A stretch of 64,000 bases of DNA, taken from NCBI GenBank assembly GCA_964405835.1, contig CAYOPN010000004.1, positions 4,082 to 68,081 of the forward strand, written 5' to 3'. Shown here piece after piece: positions 7,123 through 35,997 of the stretch. The notes under the pieces were generated by a model. The model was not told the DNA's origin. It saw nothing but the letters and a program-made list of their open reading frames with translations, and did no database searches. The stretch's first letter is position 1, and each line of letters begins with the position of its first letter. The DNA comes from an uncultured Elusimicrobia bacterium. GTDB taxonomy: Bacteria > Elusimicrobiota > Elusimicrobia > F11. A program made the translations under genes and the position numbers.

Positions 7123-7188
7123 TCTTCGCTAAAACTTAATCTGAAATTAAAGCCGTCTTAATAAGCGACACGTAACATTGTTGTAACA

Positions 7189-8373
7189 ATGGGACGAGAA
7201 CTGCCGCTATATAATAAGCGCATTCGTCACCCCGGCGAATGCCGGGGGCCAGGCTTTAAACCTGTCTTAAGAAACATGTTTAAAATCTGGATTCCGGCTT
7301 TCGCCGGAATGACGATTTACCTTCTCGTACCAAATCCAATTTTCGCCGGCACCGACACGGGCGCTGATTTTCTCAAGATCCCCATTGGCGCCGAAGCCGC
7401 CGGTCTCGGCCAAGCGTACACGGCCATGGCGAGCGGAATTAACGCGTTGAACTGGAACCCCGCCGGCATTCTCCAGACCCCTTCCAGCATGGGACGCCCG
7501 ACGATGGGATTGTCCCTTTCGCATCAAGACCAACTCGAAGAAAACAAGCTCGACCATCTCGGTGTTATCGTGCCGAGCCGCGCCGGAAAAAATTCCCTGG
7601 GGTTTGATTTGATTCGTCTCTCCTACGCCGACCAGGAAGGCCGCGACGCCGAGCGCCGCCCCACGAATCAGCTTTCGGCGTCCGACATGGCGTTCGGCGC
7701 GGCCATCGCCCGGAATTTCGGAAGCTTTCAGCTTGGCACGCAAGTCAAATTGATCCGCCAGGAATTGGCCGGCAGCAAAGCCCAGGGCCTCGCGATGGAC
7801 CTGGGACTTTTGTCGGCGATGCCGAACCCGCGACTCACGCTCGGCGCATCGGTCCGCAACCTCGGCCCGCGCATGAAGTTTCTCGACGACACATTTGAAC
7901 TGCCACTTACAATGTCCATCGGCAGCGCATTTCGTGTGACGGGCCCCTTAACACTAGCCTTGGACGTTCATTACAAACCTCACCAACGCCAAACGGTCCT
8001 TTCCCTCGGAAGTCAATTCCTCGCCGGCGATAATTTCACCCTCCGCGCCGGGTATCTTTCAAAATTGGCCGAATCGGTCACGAACACGCAGGAGTCCGAA
8101 ACGAACCGCGGCAACTTTGCAAATGTCAGCGGCCTCGCCGGCGGGCTGGGTTTTATGTTTAAACAATTTAGCCTCGATTACTCCATCACGCCGTTCGGTG
8201 AACTCGGCAACACGCAGATGCTCACGCTTTCCAGTTGGTTTGGCGCGGCCGAAGAGAAGAAATCGAATTTCGAGTCCCCTGAAGAAGAAGTCGCCGCCGT
8301 GGCCGCTCAACCCACCCGCGTCATCTTGATCCTTCCCGCCGCCAATGAATCTTGGTGGGGTTCTCTCCGCTAA
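7189..8373 (+). CDS. PorV/PorQ-family-like outer-membrane beta-barrel protein
   Basis: GADFLKIPIGAEAAGLGQAYTAMASGINALNWNPAGI matches the conserved PorV/PorQ N-terminal block. The rest has alternating beta-strand-like composition. The start is ambiguous: ATG at 7189, 7276 (MFKIWIPAFAGMT, inside the REP element) or 7309. Confidence 0.6.
   Translation: MGRELPLYNKRIRHPGECRGPGFKPVLRNMFKIWIPAFAGMTIYLLVPNPIFAGTDTGADFLKIPIGAEAAGLGQAYTAMASGINALNWNPAGILQTPSSMGRPTMGLSLSHQDQLEENKLDHLGVIVPSRAGKNSLGFDLIRLSYADQEGRDAERRPTNQLSASDMAFGAAIARNFGSFQLGTQVKLIRQELAGSKAQGLAMDLGLLSAMPNPRLTLGASVRNLGPRMKFLDDTFELPLTMSIGSAFRVTGPLTLALDVHYKPHQRQTVLSLGSQFLAGDNFTLRAGYLSKLAESVTNTQESETNRGNFANVSGLAGGLGFMFKQFSLDYSITPFGELGNTQMLTLSSWFGAAEEKKSNFESPEEEVAAVAAQPTRVILILPAANESWWGSLR
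7225..7314. repeat. REP/MITE-like palindromic element, copy B (90-nt form, inverted relative to copy A)
   Basis: It is close to the reverse complement of copy A and lies inside the 5' end of the 7189..8373 ORF. Confidence 0.85.
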
Positions 8374-11211: not shown

Positions 11212-11538
11212 ATGAAAATTCGTTACCTCTTAAGCGCCATCCTGTTTCTCGCATTCTCCTCTCAAGTTTTCGCCCTCCAAATTTCAGGCCCTGCCGAAAT
11301 CAGCAAAAAAGAAAAAGCGGTCATCACGATCACGCTTGCCGCCAACGAAAGCAAAGACGGGCTTCACTTTCACGTCACGACGCGCGCCAACGGGACTGTC
11401 GAAGCCCCGATGATCTGGACCGGAAACAGCGGCCAGGTTGAATTGGAAGGACTGCCGACGGGCTCCGTGATTCTTTCGATCACGAGGAACGACGCGCGCA
11501 AACCCTTATGCACGAAGGGCATGAAGGTGTTGCCATGA
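11212..11538 (+). CDS. small secreted hypothetical protein
   Basis: An AAGGAG-type RBS precedes the ATG. It has a signal peptide LLSAILFLAFSSQVFA. Its stop overlaps the next start (ATGA). Confidence 0.5.
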   Translation: MKIRYLLSAILFLAFSSQVFALQISGPAEISKKEKAVITITLAANESKDGLHFHVTTRANGTVEAPMIWTGNSGQVELEGLPTGSVILSITRNDARKPLCTKGMKVLP

Positions 11539-14500
11539 ACTTCTTTAAACGCCTCGCTCTTTTCGGCTTCATTTTCAGCACCGGTTCCGCGGCTTTCGCG
11601 GCCTATACGATCACACGCACCGACGGCGGAAACAACACGTTGCTCGTCCAAGGCCGCGAATACGAATACGTGATCACGAACACCAATACTCCGATCCGCC
11701 TCGAAGACGTATTCATCGATGTCAGCTCTCCGAACCATGACATCATGGTGGCCCCCGGCGTGCAGACCGGCCCCAACAAATTCTCTGTCGACAACAACGG
11801 CCAGTTGGTCATCAGCATCCGTTTCCATAACCAAGGGTCCTATTCGTTAACGGTCCGTAACTCGCAGGACTCGAACAACCGGGGCACACTGAACAGCATT
11901 CAAGTGCAACGTTATCCGGTCACCTTTTCTATTACGCCGAGCAACCCGACCGTTAACGCCGCCCAACCTTTTACAATCAATGTGACGGCCATCGATGTTA
12001 ACGGCATTGTCGTGACCGGCTTTGAAGATTCGGTCCAGATCCGCGACAGCCAGCTATCTTCGTTGGTTGGTTTTGTGGATGGCTCGTCCTTCGTAAACGG
12101 CACCGCCACCAATGTGCCGGTGACGGTCCTGGCCGGCAATCTGGCCAACCAATTCACACTAACGCTTACCGGCGAAATCCAGTATTACAATCCGTCCTTG
12201 CCTGCGCCTCACATGAGCCCGAACCCGACTTTGGTCAGCAACATGCTCAATTTGATTCCCGGGGCGTTCCACAAATTGATCATGCTGTTCCCCGGCGAAA
12301 CGTTGAACCCCGGAAGCGGCAAATCGGGAACCGTGACCGACCAACAGTCCGGCGTTCCTGTTTCCCTGGTGACGGTCCGCCGCGTCGACCAGTGGTTCAA
12401 CCCAATCCTGACGAACCCGAACCCGGCTGTCAGCGTCCAATTCACGTCTTCTCAAGTCGGTCAGGACAACCCACCTTTCCCGTTCACGCTTTCGATGACG
12501 AGCCCTTTGCTTTCAATCACCGCGGCAATGAACCAGATTTATTTCGGCGGCAGCGGCGACCGTATCGTCAAAGCGATCCCCGATGGACAGAGCTCGCAAG
12601 AAGACTCTTCGCTGGTTCCGGCCACGCCGGGCCAAGCCGAGTCCTACACAATCGAAATCGTCGGTGTCGCGCCGAACCAGACCGTCGACACCGAGACCCT
12701 GATGCTGGTCCGCGTTCGCGCGTTTGACCAGAACGGCGACCCGCTCACCACACTTTTCGGACAAATTCCCGGCGCCGAAATGCGCGCGCTGCTTGGCAGC
12801 GGACAAGAAAGCCGCGCCTGGGTCGACACCAACGAACCGACGCTTGTTCCCGACAACGTGGTCAATTTCAGCGCCGGCGTGGCAACGATGAATTTGGTCG
12901 TCACCAAGTTCGGTTCCGATGTCCGTCTCCATTATGTGACGCCGGTCCGCGACGCGTTGTCGATCCCGTTTAACGTGGACGTCGGCGCGCCGAACAAAGT
13001 CCATTTCACGATCCGCGGTAAAGCGCCCACCCCGGCGCAAGGCGAGACCTGGACGCCCGGCACCTATCCCGGCAACGGCGGCACGCCCCCGACAGTGAAA
13101 GTGGGGGAGGAACTGGTGGTCGAAGCGCGCATTACCGATAGACGTTGGAACCTGATTTCCGGCGGCGGCGCCAGCTACACGATGCAAATCACGAACACCG
13201 CTAACCATTTTGTCGAGTCCCGCCACATGACCCTTGGGGGCCCGACATATCAGTTCCCGGCCAACGGCGAATTTGCCTTCAATAATGATCCGGCCTTTGA
13301 CCGTTCGTTCCGTGTGAAGTTCCGCACAGCCGGTCCCTCGGCCTCGCCGATTATTCCCGCGCCGCAATTCGCAGGCACCATTTCTCTCGGCACGTTTTTC
13401 AGTTCATCGAACACCGTTGTTCCCGAGGTGTACAGCAAGCTCGTGATCGCGGCCCCGGGAGAAACGCTCCGTCCCGGCACCGACACCGAACCGGACGGAA
13501 AGACGGGCACTCCGTCTTCCCAAGCCGCCGGCGTGCAGTTCAATACGATCGCCTACGCGACCGACCTCTATTTCAATCCGGTGATCAACAGTCCTTTCCC
13601 GACCGTTAATTTCACATTGACCCCCGCGCTGGCCGCGAGTTTCGTGAGCGGCACGCTGCCGGCGGCGATGCAAAGCGGCCAAAGAAATTTCACGGTCACG
13701 CTCGGCAGCGGCACAAACGTGCGTTTGTTCGACAACGCCACGCCGGCCATTTTCCAACAAGTCTCCGTTCCTATTTCCCATGGACCGTTGGACCATTTCC
13801 GTTTGACGTTGAACGCGGTGGGTGACAAAGAAGCCGGTGTTCCTTTCAATGTGACGATCCGCGCGGAAGACCAGTACAACAATCAGGTCCTTAACTTTAA
13901 CCAGGCCGTCGCCTTGACACCCAACACCGGGGCGGCCACGATGAACCCGACCTCGGTCAATTTGGTCAACGGATCGCTCACGCTTGATATGACGATGTTC
14001 GCTTCCACTCCCGCCGCGCGTATTCAGATGTCGCTCGGCAGCGTGATTTCAAACAGCCCGACGTTTGTGGTCCGCGTGAATTCGCAGGGATATCGCCGCT
14101 TGCTCTTGTTGCTGCCGGGGGAAACCTTGGCCCAAGGCACCTTGGCCGGAAAAACCGGGACACCGACGCCGGTCACGGTCGGCGTGGTCAGCATCGCCCG
14201 CGCGTTGGCTTGCGACCTTTATTTCAACCCACTTGATACGGCCGGCACAGTCAGCTTTGCGAGCAACCACTTGTCTCAATTCGGCTCCGCTCAAGGAAAC
14301 CTCGCCAATGTCGACGGACATGGCGAATATTCGACCACTCTTATTTTGAAAAACGCCACCACGCACACGATTACATTGGTGGATGTGAATAACGGGTCGG
14401 TTTCCGGCTCCACGTCGGCCATCCAAGGATTGGTTGGAACTTACAAGAAGCTTCAAGTGCTCGCGCCCGGTGAAACCGCCGACCCGGACCAAGCGAACGG

Positions 14501-17420
14501 CAAGACCGGGACGCCGCTCACCCAAAAAGTTTCGACGCCTTTCACGCTCACCATGCGCGCCGTGGACGACTTCTGGAACCTGGTCACATTCAACGGTGGC
14601 GATACCAATTTATCGGCGAGCATCGTGGCCGCGATGTTCAACCCGCCGAACAACAACGGCGGCGTAAGCCCGCGTCCTTTTACAAATGGCGTGACGACGC
14701 GTGATGCCATTATCGGTCAACAAGGCCTGGTGACACTGACCGTCCGTGACGATGCGAACCTGACCAAACCCGGTCAAAGCGTCGAAGTGCAAGTGGACCC
14801 GGGCCCAATTTATGTGTTCACAACGGCCCAGACCGCTACCGCCGGCCAAGCTTTCCCGCCGGTGACGATCAGTCTTGAAGAAAACGGCGTCCCCGTGAAC
14901 GGCTACAACCGGTCGATATTTTTGACCGCCGATCTCACTTCGGGCGGCCCGGCGTCGGGCGGATTCAACCCGGACGGCTCGCCCCGCGAATACGTGATGA
15001 CCAACGGCCAAGTTGTGATCAACGATTTGAGCTACGCGTATGTTGAAAACATCAAGATCCGTCTTTCCGATGACTTCAACCGCCTTGCTTTCTCGGACCC
15101 GATTGAAGTTATTCCAAGCGGATTAAAATACCGCGTCACGGTCCCTTCCTCCGATGTTATCGCCGGTCCGCCGTCCAACTTTCCTGTGCGCGTGGAACTG
15201 CTTGAACAGAACACCAACACGCTGGTCAAGAACCACGACCATACCGTGGACGTTGCGGTGCTTTCCGCGATCAACGCAACCACCGATGGCGCTTACAGCG
15301 TCACCACCGCCAACTTGGTCCAAGGCGTCGCCAATTTCGCGCAGTCGTACACCAAAGCGGAATCGATCATCATTACTATTACAGAGTCCGCGACCACCGG
15401 TGACCCCAACTTCGTCATTCCGTCGCAAAACAGCAACAACGTGAACGTGGTGGCCGATGGCTACAAGAAACTTTTGTTGGTGATGCCCGGTGAGACCCAC
15501 GTGCCGGGCGTGACCTCCGCCACCGGTAAGACCGGAACGCCGACGTCACGTCAGAAAGGCGTACCGTTCCTGGCCCAAGTGCGCGGCGTGGACCAATACT
15601 GGAACGTCGCTCAGTCATTCAGTGGCGGCGCCATCCGTTTTGAATCGAACGACTTACCGCCCTCCATCATGTTGACCAATCCCACAAACCAGGACGCGCC
15701 GCTCGTGAACGGTGAAAGCGCTTCCTTTATCCACATGGACAACCCGGGCAGCTGGTCGGTGACGGTAAAAGACTCGAACAATTCCTTGATCAGCGTGCAA
15801 TCGGTGTTGTTGGCCGTTGGTGGCCTCTATTACCAAGTGGACGGCATCCCGGCCCAAGTCCACGCCGGCCCACCCACGCAATTCACGATGAACGTGACGC
15901 TTTACGATTCGATAACAAACCTGCCGGTCACAAGCGCGAACCAGGCTCTCATACTGGAAGCGCGTTATGCGAACGGCACGTTGGCCGCGGGCAACCTCGG
16001 CATCACCAGCGCCCAATTGTCCAACGGCACGGTCGGCATCACAAACCAGAGTTATTCGATCGCAGAAAATATCTTCATCCACGTCCGCGACGCCATCGGC
16101 AACACGGGCTCGAGCGCCATCATTAACTTCATCCCGCGCCAAGTCCGTTATGTGTTTGAGACGCCGGCCGACGCCGACGTGAACACGCCTTTTAATGTGA
16201 CCATCCGCGCCATCGATCAGGACACCGGCAGCGAAGTGCGGAACTTGAACCGCACCAACACGCTGGCGGCGTTCGCTTCACTCACCGGCCTTCCGGTCAC
16301 CGGCAGCTTTGTTCCGGGCACCGTGAACATCGTTAATGGTACCGGCCAAGTATCGGCCACCTACAACATCGCCGAATCGATCTTCCTTCAAATGACGGAC
16401 TCGACGCCGCTTAATGGCCAAAGTCCGCCCACGCAGCCGACCTATTCTTCCAACGGCTCGATCAACATTCACCCTGGCGCGTTGTCGGATTTGACCGGCA
16501 TTGCCGACTTTGCGATGCAATCCAACGAGACCCGCAATTTCACTGTTACCGCGCTCGATGCGTTCGGCAATATCATCCCCGGCCAAAACTTGGTCTTCCG
16601 CGTGAACGCCATTGACCCGCCCGGACAGATGGCGATGAACGGCCAAGCCGACCTCTATTCGGCCGACGTCAACAGCGCCGGTCAACTGAACGTCACTTTC
16701 CGGCCCTCGGTCAACACGAATGGTCTGGTTGAAATCGTGATAGCCGATGGAACACGGCCGAACGGTTACACCAAAACGGTTTTGATCGCCATGAACGGCT
16801 GGACGCTGAACCCGGCGCGCGCGCTCGGTCTTGGCGAAAACCGTATCCCGGTGGGCACGCGTCTGAAACTCGATATCAGCCAACGACCTGGCACCGGCGG
16901 GACCGTCCGTACTTTTTATCGCGTGGACAACGGCCCGTGGCAGCTTTACGACGCGAACAACGGCGTCGCGGGTTTTGATCAAACCCGCAGTTACAACCTC
17001 GAATGGTATTCGGAAGTCTGCTACGACCTGGCTTGTACAAACCCCATCAGCGAACTTTCCATCAGCGGCGCGCCTAACTTTGCCAGCGTGACGACCTATA
17101 TCGTGACGGACAACATCAACGGCTACCCCAGTCCGTTTAACCCGAAAGCGACCGATGGGAACAATTACCTCACGATTCAATACCCGCTTCAAACGGCGAC
17201 AAGCGTGGAAATAGACATCTACGACCTCTTCGGCCAGAAAGTCTGGCACAAGGACATCAACGGAGGGGAGCAAGGCGGGGAAGCGCGGATGGACAACCGG
17301 GTGTTTTGGTTCGGTACCAACGATGAAGGCCACACTGTTGCAAATGGTGGGTATATCGTGACTGTTAAGCCCGGCGGGTCCTCGCAGACAATGAAAACAA
17401 AGGTCCTGGTTGTGAAATAA
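11535..17420 (+). CDS. giant cell-surface protein with Ig-like (Big-type) domains, a 5x repeated PGET/GKTGTP module and a FlgD-Ig/T9SS-CTD-like tail
   Basis: The ATG at 11535 gives a signal peptide MNFFKRLALFGFIFSTGSAAFA. Repeated blocks such as PFNVTIRAEDQYNN and PFNVTIRAIDQDTG resemble invasin/Big-like repeats. The C-terminal YPSPFNPKA...YIVTVKPGG tail is at 17115-17417. Confidence 0.75.
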   Translation: MNFFKRLALFGFIFSTGSAAFAAYTITRTDGGNNTLLVQGREYEYVITNTNTPIRLEDVFIDVSSPNHDIMVAPGVQTGPNKFSVDNNGQLVISIRFHNQGSYSLTVRNSQDSNNRGTLNSIQVQRYPVTFSITPSNPTVNAAQPFTINVTAIDVNGIVVTGFEDSVQIRDSQLSSLVGFVDGSSFVNGTATNVPVTVLAGNLANQFTLTLTGEIQYYNPSLPAPHMSPNPTLVSNMLNLIPGAFHKLIMLFPGETLNPGSGKSGTVTDQQSGVPVSLVTVRRVDQWFNPILTNPNPAVSVQFTSSQVGQDNPPFPFTLSMTSPLLSITAAMNQIYFGGSGDRIVKAIPDGQSSQEDSSLVPATPGQAESYTIEIVGVAPNQTVDTETLMLVRVRAFDQNGDPLTTLFGQIPGAEMRALLGSGQESRAWVDTNEPTLVPDNVVNFSAGVATMNLVVTKFGSDVRLHYVTPVRDALSIPFNVDVGAPNKVHFTIRGKAPTPAQGETWTPGTYPGNGGTPPTVKVGEELVVEARITDRRWNLISGGGASYTMQITNTANHFVESRHMTLGGPTYQFPANGEFAFNNDPAFDRSFRVKFRTAGPSASPIIPAPQFAGTISLGTFFSSSNTVVPEVYSKLVIAAPGETLRPGTDTEPDGKTGTPSSQAAGVQFNTIAYATDLYFNPVINSPFPTVNFTLTPALAASFVSGTLPAAMQSGQRNFTVTLGSGTNVRLFDNATPAIFQQVSVPISHGPLDHFRLTLNAVGDKEAGVPFNVTIRAEDQYNNQVLNFNQAVALTPNTGAATMNPTSVNLVNGSLTLDMTMFASTPAARIQMSLGSVISNSPTFVVRVNSQGYRRLLLLLPGETLAQGTLAGKTGTPTPVTVGVVSIARALACDLYFNPLDTAGTVSFASNHLSQFGSAQGNLANVDGHGEYSTTLILKNATTHTITLVDVNNGSVSGSTSAIQGLVGTYKKLQVLAPGETADPDQANGKTGTPLTQKVSTPFTLTMRAVDDFWNLVTFNGGDTNLSASIVAAMFNPPNNNGGVSPRPFTNGVTTRDAIIGQQGLVTLTVRDDANLTKPGQSVEVQVDPGPIYVFTTAQTATAGQAFPPVTISLEENGVPVNGYNRSIFLTADLTSGGPASGGFNPDGSPREYVMTNGQVVINDLSYAYVENIKIRLSDDFNRLAFSDPIEVIPSGLKYRVTVPSSDVIAGPPSNFPVRVELLEQNTNTLVKNHDHTVDVAVLSAINATTDGAYSVTTANLVQGVANFAQSYTKAESIIITITESATTGDPNFVIPSQNSNNVNVVADGYKKLLLVMPGETHVPGVTSATGKTGTPTSRQKGVPFLAQVRGVDQYWNVAQSFSGGAIRFESNDLPPSIMLTNPTNQDAPLVNGESASFIHMDNPGSWSVTVKDSNNSLISVQSVLLAVGGLYYQVDGIPAQVHAGPPTQFTMNVTLYDSITNLPVTSANQALILEARYANGTLAAGNLGITSAQLSNGTVGITNQSYSIAENIFIHVRDAIGNTGSSAIINFIPRQVRYVFETPADADVNTPFNVTIRAIDQDTGSEVRNLNRTNTLAAFASLTGLPVTGSFVPGTVNIVNGTGQVSATYNIAESIFLQMTDSTPLNGQSPPTQPTYSSNGSINIHPGALSDLTGIADFAMQSNETRNFTVTALDAFGNIIPGQNLVFRVNAIDPPGQMAMNGQADLYSADVNSAGQLNVTFRPSVNTNGLVEIVIADGTRPNGYTKTVLIAMNGWTLNPARALGLGENRIPVGTRLKLDISQRPGTGGTVRTFYRVDNGPWQLYDANNGVAGFDQTRSYNLEWYSEVCYDLACTNPISELSISGAPNFASVTTYIVTDNINGYPSPFNPKATDGNNYLTIQYPLQTATSVEIDIYDLFGQKVWHKDINGGEQGGEARMDNRVFWFGTNDEGHTVANGGYIVTVKPGGSSQTMKTKVLVVK

Positions 17421-17433
17421 AAAGGCGATCCCA

Positions 17434-18792
17434 ATGTCAAACTTAACCCTCAAATCGAATCTCAAAATCGCACTGGTTTTAACACTGGTTGCGGGCACTT
17501 TTGAGAACCAGGCCTGGGCGGCTTCCTCTTACGGCCAAGCCTCGGACCTGTTTAATGTGGGGGCGGGCGCGCGTTCCATGGCGATGGGCGGCGCTTTCAC
17601 AGGTTTAGCTGACGATGCTTCCGCTCCGTATTTCAATCCCGCCGGTTTGGCGTTCCTGGACGAACATCAGTTGATGGTGATGCACGCGCCGCTCTTTATT
17701 GATACCAGCTACAACTACATCGCTTCCGCCAACCCGCTCGGAGACCGTTTGGGTGCGCTGGCCTTGTCCGATGCCATGTTGTTGTCCGACGGCTTTCAGC
17801 TTCGCGATACCAACAACCAGTTGCTCGACGAAAATGGCTCGCTTAACAACAACGCCATCCTCGGTTCTTACGCCCGCAAGATCACACAAAAACTTGCCGT
17901 CGGTGGAAACGCCAAATTTATCCAACAGAAAGTGGCCGGTTTTTCGGACAGCACGCTCGGCATGGATGCGGGCGTCCTTTATAAACCGGCGCCGGTGATC
18001 AGCATGGGGCTCTTTTTGGGAAACTTCAATTCGCCCAGCATCAAACTTCAGACGTCCGAAGATATTTATCGCCCGATCACGCGTTTTGGCTTGGCTTCAG
18101 AGATTTTTAAAGGCCGTTTGGTCCTCACCGCGGACATGACCAAGGTCAGCCAGCAGGACAACCTGTTCGCCGCCGGCGCCGAGTTGGCCGCCAACCGCTT
18201 TTTCTCGATCCGGACTGGTTTTAACGCGAACCGGAGTTACACTCTCGGCATGGGCCTCAATATGAAAAAACTGCGCGTGGACTATGCGTTCAGCAACACG
18301 GACATCGGCCAGTTCAACAAAGTTTCTCTCACCTACGCGTGGGCGAACATTTACAAGACAGACATCGAACCTCCGATGAAAGAAGGCCGCGCGATTTACC
18401 CTCTCAGCGGGTTTGAAAACCAAGTTGTGTTCAAGACCTCGGTCCCGTCACACTCGGTCGCCAAATGGACCTTGGACATCACCGATGCGGAAGGAAAACA
18501 AGTTCGCCGCTTGGAAGGCGACCTCCACCCGCCGGCCGAAATCAACTGGGACGCCAAGAACAACATCGGCGCTCCGACGGTTGACGGCACCTACAACTAC
18601 CACTTTACGGTCAACTACAAGAACGGCAAGAGATGGGAGAACGAAGGCAACCTGAAACTCGCTCTCCCCGATCACGAACGCAAAGAAGTGATCGACATGA
18701 GCCTGGAGCTGAACGGCGCAAAAGAAGGCGAGATGACCGCCGAAACCAATTCAGAAGCCGAAGTGATGCCGCAACCGGAGGCGGCGCAGTAA
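17434..18792 (+). CDS. PorV/PorQ-family-like outer-membrane barrel with a C-terminal FlgD-Ig-like domain
   Basis: It has a signal peptide, and NVGAGARSMAMGGAFTGLADDASAPYFNPAGLAFL matches the PorV/PorQ block. A FlgD_ig-like segment (KWTLDITDAEGKQVRRLEGDL...INWDAKNNIGAPTVDGTYNYHFTV) follows the barrel. Confidence 0.65.
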   Translation: MSNLTLKSNLKIALVLTLVAGTFENQAWAASSYGQASDLFNVGAGARSMAMGGAFTGLADDASAPYFNPAGLAFLDEHQLMVMHAPLFIDTSYNYIASANPLGDRLGALALSDAMLLSDGFQLRDTNNQLLDENGSLNNNAILGSYARKITQKLAVGGNAKFIQQKVAGFSDSTLGMDAGVLYKPAPVISMGLFLGNFNSPSIKLQTSEDIYRPITRFGLASEIFKGRLVLTADMTKVSQQDNLFAAGAELAANRFFSIRTGFNANRSYTLGMGLNMKKLRVDYAFSNTDIGQFNKVSLTYAWANIYKTDIEPPMKEGRAIYPLSGFENQVVFKTSVPSHSVAKWTLDITDAEGKQVRRLEGDLHPPAEINWDAKNNIGAPTVDGTYNYHFTVNYKNGKRWENEGNLKLALPDHERKEVIDMSLELNGAKEGEMTAETNSEAEVMPQPEAAQ

Positions 18793-18835
18793 TCACGCAG
18801 TAAGAGCACGTCACACAGAAGAGGGGAACAGACAC

Positions 18836-21817
18836 ATGAATTCAATTGCTCGGAGCCTTATCTCCATGAGCTTGGTGGGACATCTCGTCGCGCCGGCGTT
18901 CGCCGTTTCCCAGGATCCCCTTCAACAATTCAAACTCGCCTCCCTCGCCTACGAAAACAAACGCCTCGACAGCGCCTCCCAGGAATACGAGGGGTTCATC
19001 AAACACTTCCCAAACCACCGCCTCGCCGCCCAGGCCCGTCTTGCGCTTGGGGAAATCAAATTTGAACTAAAGAAATATCCCGACGCCGCCGATGAATATA
19101 CGGCGGTGATCAAAAAACATCCCGGAAGTTACGAGGCGATGAACGCGGAGCTGCGCCTTGGACAGTGCGAATACAACATGAAGAAGTACCTGAACGCGAT
19201 CGACCACTTTACGGTCGTAAAAAACAAAGCGCCGAAGGTGCTGCGTTCCGAAGCGCTTTTGGGATGGGCGCTTTCGCTGGTGGCGCTGAACAGCCACGAG
19301 AAAGCGGAGAACATGCTTGTTGAGCTTTTGCAGTCCTATCCGAAATACAAAACCAACGCGGCCGCCGTTGTTCCGCTGGGGCTTCTTTATATGGAGCGCA
19401 ACCGCCTGCAAGATGCGCTGGAAACACTTTCCATGATCAAAGACGACCTGGGAGCCCGTTACTACCACGGCGTGGTGTTGCGCATGATGGACCAGACCAT
19501 CGCGGCATCACAAATGTTCAAAGATGTTTTTCAGGAAGACCCGACCGGCCCCTGGGCAGACAAAGCCCAGCTCCAAATGGCCGAGGCCTATTACAAGGTC
19601 AACGAACTCAATCTCGCCTACGACAGCTTTCGCAAAGTCTATGACAAGTTCCAACTGAGCCCATTGCGCCCGTACGCGCTTCACCGCATGGCCTGCATCC
19701 AATTCCATCTCGGCCGTTACCAGGAAGCCGGCCTCAAATGGGAACAGCTTGTCCGAACCTTTGAAGACGACGTGAACCTGCCTTACGCGATTTACATGAT
19801 GGGAGAGATGGCGCTCCGCCAAGGCGAATACGGCAAGGCCATTTCGTTCTTCAGTCAGATCACGGATGCGCACGAGCTGCGCATGGACGCGCAGTACAAA
19901 ATCACCTGGTGCCTCGCGCAACAGAAACAAGACGACACCGCGGTGGCCCGCGCCGAGAAATTCCTGAAGGAATATCCGTGGGGCGAATTGGCCGCCAAGA
20001 CACACCTGCTCAAAGGCATTTGCTTGCAGCGAATGAAGAAGTACATCGAAGCGAACGCGGAATATCAGATCGTTCTCGACCAATTTGGAAAATCAATCCA
20101 TGCGGAGAAGGCCCTCTATTTGATGGGAACGTCCTATTTCCAAAACAAACAATTGGCGGAAATCGTGACGTCGTTGAACTCCCAGCTGAAATTGGCGCCG
20201 GTGAGCCCGACGCGTTGGCAAGCGGAAAGCTATCTGTGGGTGGCCGAAGCCTATTACGCGCTGGACCAATATGACGCCGCGCAACGGACGTATCAATTGA
20301 TTGTCGACAATTACAAAGACACACCGAAACTGGCGCATGCCATGTTGGGTGTGGCGGCAGCCTTGGCCAAACAGGGCGACTATGACAACGCGGCCGTCGC
20401 GCACGAACGCGCGCTGGGAATGGCGGAAACGCTCAAGAGCAAAGAAGTCAAACGTTCGGTGCTCATGGACACGGCCCAGGTGCTTTTCACGCAGAAGAAA
20501 TACGACAAGGCCATGGGCTACTTCGACGAATTTGTGAACCGCTATCCGGATGATTCGCTGGTCCCCGAAGCGCTCTTTCAGGCCGGTGTTTGTTTCTACC
20601 GTCTTGAGTACTACACCGAAGCGATCACCCGCTGGAACAAAGTGGTCTCCGGTTATCCGACAAACGGTCTGGCTCCAAAGGCCCTGTTCGAAATGGCCAA
20701 GACCCAGTTTGGTCTCGGCAAATACGACGAAGCCGGGAAACAATTTCAATTGCTCATCGACAAATACCCGCAGGCCGACAACGTGAAAGACGCGCGCATC
20801 CAGATTGCGCAGTGTTATTACAACCAGGGCCAATTTGAACTGGCCACCAAACGCTTGCAGGAATTCCTGAACAACTATCCGAAAGACCCGAAGGCCAAAG
20901 ACGTTCTGGAACTGTTGCAGATGGCGCACTATCGCGATGCCAAGGGGAAAGGCGATATGGCGCTTCTGACCGACAAATTCCCGAAGAGCAAACTGACGGC
21001 CGACATTTACTGGCAGTCCGGCGCCGACGCGTTCAACGCCAAGCAATACAAACAGGCGTTGGAATTCTTCCGCAAACTGGTCGGAGATTTCCCTGACGCG
21101 CAGCAGGTGGGACAGGCCTATTACTATATGGCCGAATCGCACTTTGCGCTGGAGGAATACGCGAACGCCGTGACCGCGTACAAAAATTTCGTCCTGAACT
21201 TTCCAGAACACCCGAGCCGCATTCAAGCGCTGTTCCGCCTGGGCGTAAGCCACTTCCAGACGCAGAATTACCGCGAAGCCGTGATCGCGTTTAACGACAC
21301 GCTGGAAGCCGACCCGAACGGCGGCCTGGCGCGCGACGCGCTGGTCAATATTCCGCTCTGCTACAAAAAGATGGGACAGCCGGCGCAGGCCATCTCGGCC
21401 CACGAACGTTTCTTGCAGCGCTACGGCAACGACCCGCAACGCAACAAAGTTTTGTTGGAGATGGGCGCGCTCTACGAAGAAATGAAGAACTACGAAGCGG
21501 CCGTGAAGAGCTTCGAAGCCATTCCAGAGAATTCGGACGAGTCGTTTGACGCGCTGGTCGGCCTCGGCCGCCTCTACCGCCTGATGAAATTGCCCAACCA
21601 GGAACTGCTTGTGTACGAAAAACTTCGCGGTAAGGGGCCGAAATCAAACGAAGTCCGTTTGACCGGCATGGTCACTCTGGCCGAGATGTACCAGGAAATG
21701 GGCAAAGTGGACGATTCCATTTCGGTCTACGAAGACATCGCCGCCAACAGCGCCAATCCGGATTGGAAACAAGCGGCGTTGGACCGCGCAAAAACGCTTC
21801 GATCAGAAGTCAAATAG
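18836..21817 (+). CDS. large tetratricopeptide-repeat protein (YbgF/CpoB-like repeats)
   Basis: It has a signal peptide followed by many A..Y..G.Y..A...F-type TPR units over 993 aa. Confidence 0.85.
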   Translation: MNSIARSLISMSLVGHLVAPAFAVSQDPLQQFKLASLAYENKRLDSASQEYEGFIKHFPNHRLAAQARLALGEIKFELKKYPDAADEYTAVIKKHPGSYEAMNAELRLGQCEYNMKKYLNAIDHFTVVKNKAPKVLRSEALLGWALSLVALNSHEKAENMLVELLQSYPKYKTNAAAVVPLGLLYMERNRLQDALETLSMIKDDLGARYYHGVVLRMMDQTIAASQMFKDVFQEDPTGPWADKAQLQMAEAYYKVNELNLAYDSFRKVYDKFQLSPLRPYALHRMACIQFHLGRYQEAGLKWEQLVRTFEDDVNLPYAIYMMGEMALRQGEYGKAISFFSQITDAHELRMDAQYKITWCLAQQKQDDTAVARAEKFLKEYPWGELAAKTHLLKGICLQRMKKYIEANAEYQIVLDQFGKSIHAEKALYLMGTSYFQNKQLAEIVTSLNSQLKLAPVSPTRWQAESYLWVAEAYYALDQYDAAQRTYQLIVDNYKDTPKLAHAMLGVAAALAKQGDYDNAAVAHERALGMAETLKSKEVKRSVLMDTAQVLFTQKKYDKAMGYFDEFVNRYPDDSLVPEALFQAGVCFYRLEYYTEAITRWNKVVSGYPTNGLAPKALFEMAKTQFGLGKYDEAGKQFQLLIDKYPQADNVKDARIQIAQCYYNQGQFELATKRLQEFLNNYPKDPKAKDVLELLQMAHYRDAKGKGDMALLTDKFPKSKLTADIYWQSGADAFNAKQYKQALEFFRKLVGDFPDAQQVGQAYYYMAESHFALEEYANAVTAYKNFVLNFPEHPSRIQALFRLGVSHFQTQNYREAVIAFNDTLEADPNGGLARDALVNIPLCYKKMGQPAQAISAHERFLQRYGNDPQRNKVLLEMGALYEEMKNYEAAVKSFEAIPENSDESFDALVGLGRLYRLMKLPNQELLVYEKLRGKGPKSNEVRLTGMVTLAEMYQEMGKVDDSISVYEDIAANSANPDWKQAALDRAKTLRSEVK

Positions 21818-21829
21818 GAGGGAAAGATC

Positions 21830-22510
21830 ATGCTAAAGGAACTCGGATTCATAGGAATTTTTAAAGTAAACCCGGCAATCATCAGCACACTGCTGTTTTT
21901 CTCGATACTGCTGATGACGTTCTTGCTTGAACGGTTCTGGTTTTACATGAGCCGCGCGAACTGGTCTGATGAGTTCTGGCAACGGCTCAAAAGCAACGTG
22001 TCCTCGGGCCGCTTGCACGATGCGCGCTCCATATGCGCCGCGAGCCAAAACGTTTACGCCCAGACCTTCTTGACCGCGATCAGCTCGACCCATCTCTCGC
22101 GCGCCGACAACGAAGACATGGTCCAGATAGCAAAAGAAGGCCAGCTTGAACTGTTGAGAAAACGCCTCGGGCTCTTCTCGACACTTTCCTTTATATCTCC
22201 GTTGGTGGGACTCCTCGGGACCGTAACGGGCATTATGCAGGCGTTCAGCGATCTGGGCCGTTCGGGATCGGGCGGCGCCAACATCGTTGCGGCCGGTATT
22301 TCCGAGGCCCTGGTTTCGACCGCGGCGGGCATCGTGGTGGCCGTTCCGGCCGCTATGTTCTTCAACTATTTCACCATCAAGATGCGCGGCATCGGCGTCC
22401 GCATGAACAACACGGCGCACGAACTGATCATCCTAATCTACGGCGGCGAGGAAGTCGGCGACAAACCCGCGCAGCTGAAAGCGAGCGAAATGCGTGCAAA
22501 GCTCCGCTAA
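21830..22510 (+). CDS. exbB: MotA/TolQ/ExbB proton-channel protein
   Basis: Three TM segments and the SPLVGLLGTVTGIMQAF signature. Confidence 0.9.
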   Translation: MLKELGFIGIFKVNPAIISTLLFFSILLMTFLLERFWFYMSRANWSDEFWQRLKSNVSSGRLHDARSICAASQNVYAQTFLTAISSTHLSRADNEDMVQIAKEGQLELLRKRLGLFSTLSFISPLVGLLGTVTGIMQAFSDLGRSGSGGANIVAAGISEALVSTAAGIVVAVPAAMFFNYFTIKMRGIGVRMNNTAHELIILIYGGEEVGDKPAQLKASEMRAKLR

Positions 22511-22922
22511 CCAAGACAGCGAAGCCGAGATCACAGAAGTCAACGTCGTCCCGCTTGCGGACGTTACGTTGGTGCTTCTGATTATGCTCATGTTGCTCTC
22601 GCCGATGGCGATGCAGTCCATGATCCAGGTCCAGGCGGCGCAGGCGGTGGCAACACGCTCCAAGCCGACCATCTCCGAGAAACCAATCTTCGTGGACATT
22701 ACTTCGAAAGGATTTACGGTGAACAGCCAGGTGGTTGGCACCGAATACGAACTCTACCGCGTCATCCAACGCAACGTCGCCGGCAAACGCGACAAGACGG
22801 TACTGATCTCATCTCAACCTGATGTGAAGTACCAGAACGTGGTCCGCGTGTTGGATCTGGTCCGCCAAAGCGGAGCGGTGAGTCTCTCGCTTGTCCCGCG
22901 CAATGACGGGGGGAACCCATGA
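22494..22922 (+). CDS. exbD: ExbD/TolR biopolymer transport protein
   Basis: ITEVNVVPLADVTLVLLIMLMLL is the N-terminal TM signature. The GTG start overlaps the exbB end. Confidence 0.85.
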   Translation: MQSSANQDSEAEITEVNVVPLADVTLVLLIMLMLLSPMAMQSMIQVQAAQAVATRSKPTISEKPIFVDITSKGFTVNSQVVGTEYELYRVIQRNVAGKRDKTVLISSQPDVKYQNVVRVLDLVRQSGAVSLSLVPRNDGGNP

Positions 22923-23353
22923 AAAGGGCCGAAGTGACCGAAGAAGCCATTTCCGGCGTTAACATTGTGCCCGTCATCGACGTGACGCTGGTGCTGCTGG
23001 TGATCCTGCTCTTGATGAGCCCGATTTTGAACTTGCCGAGCATTCCGGTGGAACTACCGGAAGCTATGACCAAAGAAACCAAAGATCAGAACATCTCCGT
23101 AAGTCTCGGCGCCGATGGCGCCATCTCCATCGACACGGACATTGTTGAATGGAAAGACCTGCCGCGCGCGCTGAACGCAAAGCTCCGTGAACGCAAAAAC
23201 GACGTGGTTGTCATCGTCCGCGCCGATAAAAACCTGCCCTATGGAAATGTGGAAAACTTTTTGCGCACCGTTAACAAATTTGTCGGCAACCGCGCGGTCG
23301 CCATCGCAACGATGCAGCGTTCTGCAACATTAACTCCCGGAGACAAAAAATGA
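22919..23353 (+). CDS. exbD: ExbD/TolR biopolymer transport protein (second paralog)
   Basis: ISGVNIVPVIDVTLVLLVILLLM signature and an ATGA overlap. Confidence 0.85.
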   Translation: MKRAEVTEEAISGVNIVPVIDVTLVLLVILLLMSPILNLPSIPVELPEAMTKETKDQNISVSLGADGAISIDTDIVEWKDLPRALNAKLRERKNDVVVIVRADKNLPYGNVENFLRTVNKFVGNRAVAIATMQRSATLTPGDKK

Positions 23354-24666
23354 TCCGTCCAATACCGGCCGGGCCAAGCATTAAACTCGATTTCTCCAGC
23401 CGCGACGTCGCGTGTTTCTTGTTTGCTTTGAGCGTCCATTCGTTGCTCCTATTATGGAAAGGGGGCCTTCTGGTGTTGCCCGACCAAGCGGGCGGCGGAC
23501 TTGGGGACATGCTGGTGAGCGTTGATTTTCGTTCCGATGTGCCGAGCTACGAACCGGCGGGCGGTGGCTCCTCTCCGAAAGCCGAAGGTTTGTTCGCGCG
23601 CATGAAGTCCATCATCAAAGGCCCGGGTGCGGTCGGTAAAAAATCCGAGGATATTGCGATGGGCGCCCAAACCGCTCCGATTGCGCAAACACCTGACAAA
23701 CCGGCCTGGACAAAAACGGACGTGCTCACCAACAAAACATTTGCGGACAAAAAAGGATTTGAGGGAATGGTTAAAAAAGACGCGTTGGACGTGGCCACTG
23801 GCCAGACCCAGAACGTGGTGGTCAAACCCTCTGCCGGAAATTTTGAAGAGGCCCAGCCGAACCTCAAGGAAAACAAATTTAAGATCGCGCGCAAGGACGT
23901 TCCGTTCAAAATTGTCTCGCCCAAATCCGATCAACTCGCGAACGCGAATGCCATTGCCGTAAATGTCGACCAGAAAACCAGCGCCAACGTGCGTTCGTTG
24001 GATGGCGGCCCAGGCGCGGGTCCAGCCCTCCAATCAAAATCTTTTGCATCCAAAGGCGCCTCCACCAGCGGTGGTTTCGGCGGCACACCTTCCGGATTAA
24101 AAAGCGGCTCGGGTGGCGGCCTTGCAATGGGAAGCGCGTCGGTGGGTGCAGCTTCCATGGGAGGTGGTTCGACCGGTGGAACAGGGGGGGGCGGTGGTTC
24201 GGGATATGGATCGGGCGCCGGCACCGGCAGTGGTTCCGGAAGCGGCAACGGTTTTGGCTCAGGGACCGGCGGCGGCCGTTTGTACGGCGGCGGCAGCGGA
24301 TTTGGAAGCGGCGGTGGATCGGGCGGAATGGCGACACTGGCGCGCAATACCGTGTCCGACGTTTCGACTGGCGGAAAATCTGCCTACAATTCGGGATTTA
24401 ACATCACAGGCGCGTTGGCGAACCGTCCCATCATTTCAAAAGTATTGGCGCGTTATGAAATGGACTGCCGCGTGGGACTGCGTTTCCGCGTGGACTGGGC
24501 CGGCCGCGTGATCGACGGCATCATTGTGGAAATTTCATCGGGAAGCCCGACATTCGACCAGAAAGTGGTTGCGGCGCTGCAGCAATGGGTGTTCAGCAAG
24601 CTGCCGGCCGACAAGACGAACGTGATCCAGGAAGGCATGATCACGTTTGTGTTCAAAGGAGTATAG
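23350..24666 (+). CDS. TonB/TolA-like energy transducer with a Gly/Ser-rich linker
   Basis: It has an N-terminal TM helix, a long G/S tract at 24055-24330, and a C-terminal TonB-like fold block LRFRVDWAGRVIDGIIVEISSGSPTFDQKVVAALQQW. It directly follows ExbB and the two ExbD genes. Confidence 0.6.
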   Translation: MIRPIPAGPSIKLDFSSRDVACFLFALSVHSLLLLWKGGLLVLPDQAGGGLGDMLVSVDFRSDVPSYEPAGGGSSPKAEGLFARMKSIIKGPGAVGKKSEDIAMGAQTAPIAQTPDKPAWTKTDVLTNKTFADKKGFEGMVKKDALDVATGQTQNVVVKPSAGNFEEAQPNLKENKFKIARKDVPFKIVSPKSDQLANANAIAVNVDQKTSANVRSLDGGPGAGPALQSKSFASKGASTSGGFGGTPSGLKSGSGGGLAMGSASVGAASMGGGSTGGTGGGGGSGYGSGAGTGSGSGSGNGFGSGTGGGRLYGGGSGFGSGGGSGGMATLARNTVSDVSTGGKSAYNSGFNITGALANRPIISKVLARYEMDCRVGLRFRVDWAGRVIDGIIVEISSGSPTFDQKVVAALQQWVFSKLPADKTNVIQEGMITFVFKGV

Positions 24667-24668
24667 CC

Positions 24669-25562
24669 ATGAAACGCTCAATCATTTTTGCTTGCTGCCT
24701 GGCGCTCGGCCATTCCGGCTGGGTGGGACACTCCGCCGAACAGGAAATGGGCCAACAACCGCTTTCCGAAACGGTCAAAGGCACGGTCAAAGAAACGCTC
24801 GATATCCAAAAACCGGCGCCGTCAATTGAATTGGACGTGAAGGAGATCGTCGAAAGCGGCACCGCGCAGACCGACCGCGTTCTCCAGGAAGCCAAACCGA
24901 TCCCAAGCAAAGAAGATTTTGAGAATTACGGTGTGTTGAATTCCAAACAAGTTATGCGCCCGGCGTTGCCGTTGATTCCCGAGCCGCCATTGGTGACGTT
25001 CTACCCGGGTCTCTCGAAGGTCGTTTCAAAACGGTGGGAGTTTCGCGTGTCGGATGAAAACGGCGAAATGATCAAGCTGATCAAAGGCAAAGGCGTGCCG
25101 CCGCGCAACATCGAATGGAACGGGATCAATGAGCGCGGCCAATACATCACGGTCGGGACGCTTTATTCGTATCAATTTGTGACGTTCGACGAACACGAGA
25201 ACGCTTCCACGTTTCCCGGCGAACCGTTCCAACTCGACGCGCTCATGTACAGACAGAAGGGAAAACTCGTGATCGAATTCGCCAACAAAAAACTTTTCCA
25301 AGACGAACAATCCGCGTTCAAACCCGTCATGAAATCGATGTGGGAACGCGCCATCGATGTGGTGCGGGAGAATTCGAACTCGCCCATCACGATTGAAATG
25401 TACGCGGCCAGCGCCCGCTCGCCGCTTGCCGAGGACCGCCGTTCGGCCGCCGTCAACTCGATTTCCGACGCCACCAACCTGCCTGCCGTGGACATCCGCC
25501 ACAAAGTGGACAAGATCGCCGACCGCGGCGACGTGCTCCGCGTCGTAATGAACACGAAGTAA
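24669..25562 (+). CDS. secreted protein with a FlgD-Ig-like domain and a possibly degenerate OmpA-like C-terminus
   Basis: The ATG at 24669 gives a signal peptide MKRSIIFACCLALGHS. RWEFRVSDENGEMIKLIKGKG...NIEWNGINERGQYITVGTLYSYQF is FlgD_ig-like. ITIEMYAAS...LAEDRRSAAVNSI weakly resembles the OmpA_C pattern. Confidence 0.45.
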   Translation: MKRSIIFACCLALGHSGWVGHSAEQEMGQQPLSETVKGTVKETLDIQKPAPSIELDVKEIVESGTAQTDRVLQEAKPIPSKEDFENYGVLNSKQVMRPALPLIPEPPLVTFYPGLSKVVSKRWEFRVSDENGEMIKLIKGKGVPPRNIEWNGINERGQYITVGTLYSYQFVTFDEHENASTFPGEPFQLDALMYRQKGKLVIEFANKKLFQDEQSAFKPVMKSMWERAIDVVRENSNSPITIEMYAASARSPLAEDRRSAAVNSISDATNLPAVDIRHKVDKIADRGDVLRVVMNTK

Positions 25563-25630: not shown

Positions 25631-25649
25631 ACAAGAAGAAGGAGTGAAC

Positions 25650-25847
25650 ATGAAAATCACAACATACATCGATGAAAAGCTGCTAAAAAAAGCCCTGCGC
25701 GCAACGGGGGCCCATTCGCAAAGAGAAGTTATTGAGGATGCCTTGCGCAATCTTCTCTCGGATATTCAGCGGAAACGATTCGTAAAAGAGTTTGATTCAT
25801 TCCGGCTGGATCTCTCCCTAAAAACCTTGCAGCGACAACGAGCGTGA
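25650..25847 (+). CDS. vapB: type II antitoxin, VapB-like
   Basis: MKITTYIDEKLLKKALRATGAHSQREVIEDALRNLL matches the small antitoxin pattern. A GAAGGAG RBS lies 5 nt upstream of the ATG at 25650 (the ORF track starts at the GTG at 25644). The stop overlaps the vapC start (GTGA). Confidence 0.7.
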   Translation: MKITTYIDEKLLKKALRATGAHSQREVIEDALRNLLSDIQRKRFVKEFDSFRLDLSLKTLQRQRA

Positions 25848-26281
25848 GTTTTCTCACGCTCATCGATACGTCCGCCTGGATATTTGCCCTGGGCGATCGC
25901 TCAAACCGCCGCATAAAAGAACGGATTGCTTTTCTTGTCGAGCAAAATCTCGCTTGCATCACCTCCCCTATTGCTTTTGAACTTCTATCGGGTGTCAAAT
26001 CGGACTCTGAAAACCAACGTCTCAAAAGCTACCTTTCAACAATCCATCCATTTCCTTTTATGGTTGAGGAGTGGAGCGATGCTGCCGAATGGGTAACTAC
26101 CATCCGAAAAAAGGGGGTAAAAGTAAAAACCATCGACGCTCTCATTGCGTACAAAGCCGTCAAACATAAACTCACACTGCTGCACGCCGATACCGACTTG
26201 GATCGTCTCGCGAAAAAAACCAATCTGCATGTCGAAAGCTTTGTCGATGCCGCTCGGGAAGGAAGTCGCTCCTCATCATGA
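25844..26281 (+). CDS. vapC: PIN-domain ribonuclease toxin VapC
   Basis: LIDTSAWI gives the N-terminal acidic residue, ELLSG the second, and a third lies in the C-terminal half. The size (145 aa) and pairing with vapB fit. Confidence 0.8.
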   Translation: MSFLTLIDTSAWIFALGDRSNRRIKERIAFLVEQNLACITSPIAFELLSGVKSDSENQRLKSYLSTIHPFPFMVEEWSDAAEWVTTIRKKGVKVKTIDALIAYKAVKHKLTLLHADTDLDRLAKKTNLHVESFVDAAREGSRSSS

Positions 26282-34181: not shown

Positions 34182-34247
34182 ATCAAAGTTTTTTACCGCC
34201 GCGTAAAAATCTCGAAACCTCCGCTGGACTTTGGTAGATTGTTGGTC

Positions 34248-34466: not shown

Positions 34467-34472
34467 ATTGAT

Positions 34473-35996: not shown

Positions 35997-35997
35997 A

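Follow-up and report, generated by a model that had tools for sequence, protein, structure and literature searches.

Gene content of the locus

We describe a nine-gene cluster in a stretch of 64,000 nucleotides (nt) from an uncultured Elusimicrobia bacterium (assembly GCA_964405835.1, contig CAYOPN010000004.1, positions 4,082 to 68,081 of the forward strand); this whole stretch is referred to as the window. At positions 11212-25562 the window contains nine consecutive open reading frames (ORFs) on the + strand, g1 to g9, and the ORF list confirms the claim of a first-pass annotation that their junctions overlap or come close to abutting. [quoted passage not shown] The reading that we favour, and to which we give about an even chance, is that the nine genes encode a trans-envelope complex driven by the proton motive force (PMF) which holds or handles a CTD-docked surface fibre. 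The genes are as follows.

11212-11538, + strand: g1, small secreted protein of 108 amino acids (aa) with a signal peptide
11535-17420, + strand: g2, secreted protein of 1,961 aa with ~14 Ig-like modules and a T9SS type-A-like CTD
17434-18792, + strand: g3, 14-strand outer-membrane barrel of the PorV/PorQ family with a C-terminal Ig domain
18836-21817, + strand: g4, secreted all-TPR protein of 993 aa
21830-22510, + strand: g5, TolQ-like proton-channel subunit with three membrane helices
22494-22922, + strand: g6, TolR/ExbD-like subunit 1, transmembrane Asp present
22919-23353, + strand: g7, TolR/ExbD-like subunit 2, transmembrane Asp present
23350-24666, + strand: g8, force transducer of the TonB/TolA type
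24669-25562, + strand: g9, secreted protein of 297 aa with an Ig domain and an OmpA/MotB-fold domain

The g2 protein was initially described as a giant, cargo-like Ig-repeat protein with a T9SS-CTD/FlgD-like tail. Its size is as described, and an iterated profile resolves 14 copies of a ~100-aa module between a signal peptide and a C-terminal beta-sandwich. The likeness of the module to Big_1 is weak, self-BLAST of g2 detected no repeats, and a sequence search against PDB chains returned nothing. The CTD (~17136-17417) scores just under the cutoff of 27 bits (FlgD_ig 25, CHU_C 21-24 and Por_Secre_tail 19.5 bits). The motifs YPxPF...GGYI...K-x-V-x-K, which are type-A CTD motifs, are found at the exact C-terminus of all g2 orthologues, and the orthologue CTDs of two loci (L012 and L014) pass TIGR04183 (27.0 and 23.8 bits, cutoff 23) and are closest to the uncleaved CTDs of PorZ and PorU. 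The type-A-like CTD is indicated by these motifs and by the orthologues; the tail of the window protein itself stays below all cutoffs. The giant size is a different matter. Equivalents of g2 range from ~210 aa, with one module and a CTD in WOR-3-like loci, to ~2,000 aa, and the number of modules is 1 in WOR-3-like loci, 3 in Stahlbacteria, 9 in Calditrichaceae and 12-14 in Elusimicrobia, the CTD being the sole constant. The giant size is lineage-specific and not the conserved feature, and the idea that it is essential was rejected because 210-aa orthologues exist. The small g1 protein probably consists of one Ig-like module and matches no model of Pfam or NCBIfam; its position is conserved, with a small ORF at this place in L001, L002, L003 and L007, and pairwise similarity among these ORFs is weak.

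The outer-membrane barrel encoded by g3 matches the PorV_fam subfamily model of NCBIfam (118 bits, cutoff 90) and FlgD_ig (31 bits, cutoff 27) and remains below the equivalog cutoffs for PorV (37/250 bits), PorQ (56/220 bits) and PorV2 (89/325 bits). An AlphaFold model (pLDDT 78.7; the structure models used here are single-chain predictions of moderate confidence) shows 14 long barrel strands, an Ig sandwich at residues 331-409 and a disordered acidic tail. The top Foldseek matches are PorV of the T9SS translocon (8gl6_F and 6h3i_F, E ~1e-10, TM 0.63-0.66), so that both the family score and the fold bear out the PorV/PorQ type proposed earlier. An exact database look-up of g3 gave no identical entry. 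In beta-barrels with an even number of strands, such as 14, both termini are expected in the periplasm. The FlgD/CTD-like Ig domain (~18424-18660) is therefore predicted to face the periplasm.

The structural matches of g3 that follow PorV are the substrate channels FadL, TodX and CymD. They would fit a system for TonB-dependent uptake of a hydrophobic or polymeric substrate through a FadL/PorV-type channel, in which g2 captures the substrate and g8 opens the N-terminal hatch of the barrel; such a system would be akin to that of SusC/SusD, the 22-strand receptor being replaced by a channel of 14 strands. The TonB_C domain of g8 is genuine, and no TonB-dependent receptor is located nearby, which makes the barrel the obvious outer-membrane partner. 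However, no FadL-family channel is known to require TonB, the cluster has no conserved genes for substrate processing or for uptake across the inner membrane, and what dominates as a conserved trait among the loci is the pairing of the barrel with an upstream CTD protein. We consider uptake a quite unlikely function.

The g4 protein consists of TPR throughout, with CpoB/YbgF-type repeats in 10 stretches (TIGR02795, 330 bits) and BamD-like repeats in Pfam and NCBIfam; the BamD, PrsT and PorW models match as well. It has a signal peptide and no lipobox, in agreement with the earlier description of a periplasmic-type 993-aa TPR protein, and is taken to be a periplasmic scaffold.

The complete ExbB/ExbD2/TonB-like set proposed at first was recovered with Pfam as MotA_ExbB in g5 (93.5 bits), ExbD in g6 (65.9 bits) and g7 (76.1 bits), and TonB_C in g8 (31.5 bits, cutoff 24.6). 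With the NCBIfam models, g5 scores 104 bits for TolQ (cutoff 221) and 65 for ExbB, both under the equivalog cutoffs, and the two TolR-like proteins score 67 and 72 bits for TolR (cutoff 127). In a comparison with the sequences of solved structures, g5 matched TolQ over its full length (E 3e-16), ExbB aligned over the C-terminal half only, MotA gave essentially no alignment (E 0.9), and no GldL/PorL match was obtained. The transmembrane Asp of g6, located in the motif PLADVTL, is conserved in most of the loci compared below and is replaced by Asn in the WOR-3-like clade, where g7 keeps its Asp; in L009, L013 and L015 it is g7 that has Asn or Gly at this place, and g6 retains the Asp. At least one Asp is thus kept in every aligned locus in which both paralogues are readable, and the losses are complementary. 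This pattern is the one that a heteromeric stator stalk requiring a single Asp would show.

The transducer g8 is composed of an N-terminal membrane helix with a conserved His (~23404-23484), a low-complexity linker of ~250 aa with a Gly/Ser-rich stretch, and the TonB_C domain (24448-24657; tonB_Cterm 31.9 bits, cutoff 27.1). The His is kept in 11 of the 12 aligned orthologues, and the exception (L002) is a doubtful ORF call. Judged by the conserved TolR Asp and the g8 His, the motor looks functional. No FHA domain was found in g8 in the Pfam scan or in the orthologue alignment, the match to the AgmX/PglI tail model is weak (17 bits, cutoff 40), and a sequence search of g8 against PDB chains gave low-complexity noise only. 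Residues ~240-340 are Gly/Ser-rich low complexity in this Elusimicrobia lineage, neither Pro-rich as in TonB nor helical as in TolA, and the linkers of orthologues from other phyla are much shorter.

For g9, which had been called OmpA-like, no Pfam or NCBIfam match was found for the window protein and a profile search against PDB chains returned nothing. The OmpA/MotB fold is present in the AlphaFold model (pLDDT 75) at residues 206-297 (~25284-25559), preceded by a FlgD-like Ig domain (~24993-25283). Foldseek matches comprise PA0833, FopA, PomB, MotB and wall anchors of type VI and type IV secretion systems (E 5e-6 to 1e-3), as well as FlgD. Orthologues of g9 give sub-threshold FlgD_ig matches, a WOR-3-like orthologue has a sub-threshold Pfam OmpA match (20 bits, cutoff 27), and some homologues are labelled 'MotB' by JGI. 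In g9 the canonical GHTD motif lacks its Asp, most orthologues retain the Arg, and there is no clear lipobox. The fold thus agrees with the earlier label, whereas a family match, the canonical Asp and a clear lipobox are lacking, and g9 was rejected as a classical Pal since it has neither the lipobox nor the peptidoglycan-binding Asp. The first 100 residues are predicted to be disordered yet contain many invariant positions, and this conserved, extended N-region suggests a binding peptide. The Ig domain of g3, the Ig domain of g9 and the CTD of g2 are homologous (hhalign probabilities of 99.2%, 94.9% and 83.6%, of which 99.2% is for the Ig domain of g3 against that of g9; control 0.1%).

A search with the g9 profile against 1.84 billion protein representatives gave 460 matches at E <= 1e-10. 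Full-length g9-like proteins of 290-390 aa make up about 60 of the top 150; many other matches are proteins of 1,000-4,000 aa with 8-12 FlgD-like Ig repeats, some with a terminal OmpA-like domain. The same Ig-repeat/OmpA-like architecture is indicated by weak matches to the model for Lsa66, an OmpA-like adhesin of Leptospira.

With respect to gene boundaries, the start of g2 was corrected to M10 (11535), which yields the 1,961-aa protein and an ATGA shared by the end of g1 and the start of g2; the longest ORF would begin at 11508. The g5/g6, g6/g7 and g7/g8 junctions overlap, and the stop of g8 is at 24666. The start of g9 is most likely 24669, giving 297 aa with a signal peptide, and the start at 24585 is less likely; the protein collection has an identical 297-aa entry. 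Upstream of g1 are a polyprenyl synthase gene, then a terminator-like hairpin with a T-run (seen by eye), with a 220-nt gap before g1. A promoter and terminator scan stayed at or below shuffled expectation and therefore says nothing on the operon limits.

Conserved gene order, fusions and barrel-CTD pairs

One genome per GTDB species was scanned with a g3 alignment and the best 80 loci were kept. These loci were searched with all nine window proteins by tblastn and their ORFs were called; taxon labels of the relatives are those of the record titles. Conservation of the gene order in related genomes, suggested as a check in the first-pass annotation, was found in ~15 loci of at least four phyla, with the shared order CTD protein, barrel with Ig domain, TPR protein, TolQ, TolR, TolR, TonB-like protein and g9-like protein. 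The full order is present in Elusimicrobiota (L001, L002, L003, L007 and L009), Calditrichaceae (L013), Stahlbacteria (L014), WOR-3 (L017) and unclassified metagenome-assembled genomes (MAGs; L012, L015, L016 and L018), and L087/88 and L090/91 were obtained in addition by look-ups that began with homologues of TolQ. Sizes across the loci are 416-471 aa for the barrel with Ig domain, 943-1109 aa for the TPR protein, 316-450 aa for the TonB-like protein and 284-319 aa for the g9-like protein. Identities to the window proteins range from 23 to 79%, falling as low as 23-30%; for g3, context look-ups of homologues gave 43-61% in other Elusimicrobia with complete gene order. L003 is syntenic with the window beyond the limits of the cluster. 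The nine genes are one conserved functional unit.

Every long, Ig-bearing barrel with readable flanks adjoins a TPR protein and a motor, and none of the ~65 short (~300 aa) PorV-like barrels among the best 80 loci has a TolQ/TolR match in a flank of up to 10 kb. Among the loci compared, the C-terminal Ig domain is thus found in motor-linked barrels only. The long barrel occurs in at least ~12 of the best 80 loci, roughly five of them Elusimicrobiota, and this patchy distribution suggests an accessory rather than a universal system.

Fusions in which a PorV-like barrel continues into a C-terminal TPR region arose independently and were found in L019 (1,254 aa), L094 (648 aa), P0045 and P0048, the last three being shorter. 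In L019 (30-14569) and L094 (3099-11947) the fusion is located directly 3' of giant proteins of 3,283 and 2,301 aa, respectively, and the giant of L019 ends in a type-A-like CTD. The L019 fusion is followed by a g9-like gene, without a motor. The same MAG has a full cluster (L009), which suggests that one motor may serve more than one outer-membrane module. The fusions and the motor-specific Ig domain of the barrel argue for physical coupling.

In at least 18 further loci with short barrels (L004-L006, L025, L043, L058, L059, L066, L071-L074, L077, L079, L082 and L084-L086), the PorV-like barrel is immediately preceded by a protein that ends in a CTD, and several Elusimicrobia pairs consist of a ~3,200-aa protein and a ~538-aa barrel. 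The window contains a second pair of this kind at 5395-8373 (+), in which a 575-aa secreted protein with the type-A-CTD-like tail VYVFPNPF...KRYRFIKK is followed by a 394-aa barrel of the PorV/PorQ family (132 bits, cutoff 90); no motor is adjacent. PorP_SprF matches are faint (20.5 vs 22.3 bits in L019 and 25.9 vs 90.6 in L012), and the barrel adjoins a CTD protein. The CTD/barrel two-gene module may be a general surface-display module outside Bacteroidota.

Chance adjacency of a general Ton/Tol motor operon and an unrelated adhesin/barrel pair would account for the occurrence of the core without g2 and g3 in some loci and of CTD/barrel pairs without a motor in others. It is effectively excluded by the same order with overlapping junctions in loci of at least four phyla, by identities low enough to argue against recent transfer of a single island, by the confinement of the Ig domain to motor-linked barrels, by the barrel::TPR fusions and by the homology of the Ig domains of barrel and g9.

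Several neighbouring genes were also noted. Downstream (3') of g9 are a small VapBC-like toxin-antitoxin pair (25644-26281, +), made up of an antitoxin-like ORF of 67 aa and, overlapping with it, a PIN-domain (VapC-like) gene, and then an aminotransferase gene; the pair is missing from the same position in the syntenic loci L003 and L007. A peptidoglycan/MurNAc recycling gene set occupies both strands at 29418-36657 and comprises NamZ, a sodium:solute symporter, AnmK, a SIS-domain (MurQ-like) protein, a GH3 (NagZ-like) protein and a BadF-type ATPase. A single ORF of 5,189 aa (44069-59638, +) has two AAA_5 (dynein-related) stretches, AAA_3 matches and weak vWA and beta-propeller matches, and resembles a giant MoxR/midasin-like ATPase; as a second CTD cargo it was rejected, being of the AAA_5/vWA ATPase type and without a CTD. 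In two loci with a core variant of the cluster (L089:5571-15468 and L092:5501-15383), a membrane protein rich in Pro and a protein with a CBM48 domain come before the core, and two more proteins of ~270-290 aa come after it, of which the second in L089 appears beta-barrel-like by eye.

A candidate envelope complex compared with known machines

TolQR and ExbBD-TonB/TolA systems are 5:2 motors driven by the PMF, to which a transducer is coupled by a His-bearing helix. For the complex that we favour, we infer the contacts between the parts, the topology and surface exposure of g2 and the use of the force as follows. A TolQ-like pentamer of g5 and a heteromeric, TolR-like pair of g6 and g7 would form a 5:2 motor that converts proton flow into force. 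The transducer g8 would dock on this motor by its His-bearing membrane helix and reach outward on a long flexible linker ending in TonB_C, which would pull on a periplasmic partner, to judge from the genetic evidence the g3/g4/g9 assembly, rather than on a TonB-dependent receptor or TolB-Pal. The Ig domain of g3, the g4 scaffold and g9 would connect the barrel to the wall and to g8. At the cell surface the g3 barrel would hold the uncleaved type-A-like CTD of g2, and g2 would project as a fibre whose length is set by the number of modules, 1 in WOR-3-like loci and 14 here. The energy of the PMF could be used for assembling, inserting, exporting or releasing g2 at the barrel, or for tension or motion of g2. 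The proposed docking of the CTD on g3 follows the example of PorQ-PorZ, PorV-PorU and PorP/SprF with type-B CTDs, in which cognate PorV-like barrels retain uncleaved CTDs (PMC10202324).

Several points weigh against this proposal. Each of its contacts is deduced from the adjacency, fusion or homology of genes. Folded Ig domains do not fit through a 14-strand barrel, no translocon was identified, and the proposal thus does not explain how g2 crosses the outer membrane. With only ~210 aa, the WOR-3-like 'cargo' is no better explained as an adhesin than as a structural subunit, the peptidoglycan-binding Asp is absent from g9, and in the literature PorV/FadL-like barrels of unclear role are described in spirochaetes without a T9SS as well. 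In addition, the core of TPR protein, TolQ, TolR, TolR, TonB-like and g9-like proteins is found without g2 and g3 in L089 and L092, and in L093 a CTD protein is nearby on the opposite strand. The motor is therefore not tied strictly to the pair of barrel and CTD protein and may be a more general Tol-like system.

Such a system could be a TolB-less, Tol-Pal-like housekeeping machinery, which we rank as the main rival, possible though clearly less probable than the complex outlined above. Here g4 (CpoB-like), g5-g7 (TolQRR), g8 (TolA-like) and g9 (Pal-like) would keep up tethering of the outer membrane to the wall and constriction, the barrel would be an anchor, and g2 would be a surface-layer protein that docks incidentally. 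As in Tol-Pal, a TolQ-like and TolR-like motor, a His-helix transducer with a TonB_C/TolA-type head, CpoB/YbgF-type repeats and an OmpA-fold partner are encoded in one operon. The full-length match and best score of g5 with TolQ, the CpoB/YbgF model in 10 stretches of g4, the OmpA/MotB fold of g9 and the g4-g9 core without g2 and g3 in some Elusimicrobia fit this explanation, and passages of PMC12204202 indicate that TolA and TonB are hard to separate outside Proteobacteria. However, TolB, a beta-propeller protein, is missing from every cluster; no PD40 or TolB match was obtained in the nine proteins with Pfam and NCBIfam or in the orthologous clusters by locus comparison. Unlike Tol-Pal, the cluster has two TolR paralogues and, as outer-membrane partner, a PorV-type barrel with a CTD protein; g4 is a non-lipoprotein of ~1,000 aa, compared to ~260 aa for the Tol-Pal TPR protein, and g9 has an additional Ig domain and neither a clear lipobox nor the Asp for peptidoglycan binding. 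All scores are under the equivalog cutoffs, and the distribution of the long barrel is apparently patchy. Canonical Tol-Pal with TolB is reported in Elusimicrobia in passages of PMC12204202. Finally, the system is linked to the CTD module by the motor-specific Ig domain of the barrel and by the barrel::TPR fusions beside giant CTD proteins.

The earlier comparison of the cluster with Tol-Pal or the Myxococcus Agl/Glt motor is apt at the level of architecture. Like the Agl-Glt core (aglRQS, gltD/E/C and gltG), the cluster encodes one TolQ, two TolR, a secreted TPR protein of large size (GltD of 1,191 aa, g4 of 993 aa) and a TonB-like transducer in a single operon, and in Myxococcus this core is coupled to outer-membrane barrels and an adhesin. 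The core is widespread and occurs as a single operon with a function that is unknown in non-gliders (Luciano et al., PMC3169522). Such parts, together with the barrel and adhesin, the long repetitive fibre of g2 in Elusimicrobia and the weak AgmX/PglI match of g8, could point to surface motility or adhesion, in which the motor moves or tensions the barrel-anchored g2 as in Myxococcus Agl-Glt or with Flavobacterium SprB. This function seems improbable in view of the single ~210-aa module of g2 in WOR-3-like loci, and the cluster has neither cytoplasmic Glt components nor conserved genes for a cytoplasmic track or for polarity. Moreover, g8 is without FHA, the barrel has a 14-strand PorV fold unlike the OmpA-like GltA/B/H, and the adhesin is an Ig-repeat/CTD protein instead of the vWA protein CglB. 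Luciano et al. (PMC3169522) also argue that the core alone does not confer gliding.

Among the other Tol/Ton-type systems, TonB-ExbB-ExbD, including the ExbB-ExbD-ExbD-TonB arrangement of Bacteroidota, shares with the cluster MotA_ExbB, two ExbD and TonB_C in a row with the conserved Asp and His. It differs in that the cluster has no 22-strand TonB-dependent receptor and no recognisable TonB box, and in that the channel subunit aligns full-length with TolQ; no TonB_dep_Rec or Plug match was found in the cluster or the window ORFs scanned, and the barrel has 14 strands. Clusters of the type TPR-tolQ-tolR-tolR-vWA, termed a 'new force transducer', are described for PVC bacteria in passages of PMC12204202. 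These have the same gene grammar of TPR, tolQ, tolR, tolR and transducer, whereas the head is TonB_C here and vWA there, and barrel, CTD and OmpA-fold proteins are not part of the description in those passages.

With the docking pairs of the T9SS, the cluster shares a PorV/PorQ-family barrel gene beside a gene for a type-A-like CTD protein, a CTD nearest to those of PorZ and PorU, and a PMF motor, and its TPR and OmpA-fold proteins recall PorW and PorE, PorE being a TPR/OmpA wall anchor (PMC10202324). The motor is of the TolQR/TonB type instead of PorLM/GldLM, and the barrel bears a CTD-like Ig domain of its own, predicted to be periplasmic. In accordance with the first-pass annotation, none of PorK/L/M/N, SprA/Sov, PorU or a TonB-dependent receptor was found among the window ORFs scanned, and the T9SS core was not found in the cluster flanks either. 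A minimal type-IX-like system without SprA, in which a TolQR/TonB motor rather than PorLM powers export and docking of type-A CTD proteins, is a tentative and rather doubtful possibility. The TPR and OmpA-fold partners would then play the roles of PorW and PorE, and the system would act in Elusimicrobiota and several candidate phyla and would serve stand-alone CTD/barrel pairs in trans, such as those at 5395-8373 of the window and in L019. If true, it would be a sister or precursor of the Bacteroidota T9SS.

CTD modules outside Bacteroidota and their implications

CTD proteins have been described as restricted to Bacteroidota (PMC10202324). Our searches for Elusimicrobia or candidate phyla with T9SS, PorV or Tol-Pal, and for PorV with ExbD, TolQ or TPR, found no published description of the cluster. 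The occurrence in Elusimicrobiota of CTD proteins and cognate barrels wired to a Tol/Ton-type motor therefore appears to be undescribed in the searchable literature.

The cluster belongs with the PMF-driven envelope machines of the Tol/Ton/Agl type. The known tasks of motors of this type with 5:2 stoichiometry are the import of nutrients (Ton), the tethering of the envelope (Tol-Pal) and gliding (Agl-Glt). With a PorV-type barrel that holds a CTD protein, the cluster would add a fourth kind of outer-membrane client for such motors. Predictions of the proposed complex include, besides the contacts between its parts, a heteromeric TolR pair that requires only one proton-binding Asp and a surface fibre whose length follows the module count. 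CTDs and PorV-like barrels, regarded as hallmarks of the T9SS of Bacteroidota, form conserved two-gene modules in Elusimicrobiota, and this finding bears on the origin of the T9SS and on how the cell surface is built in poorly known phyla.

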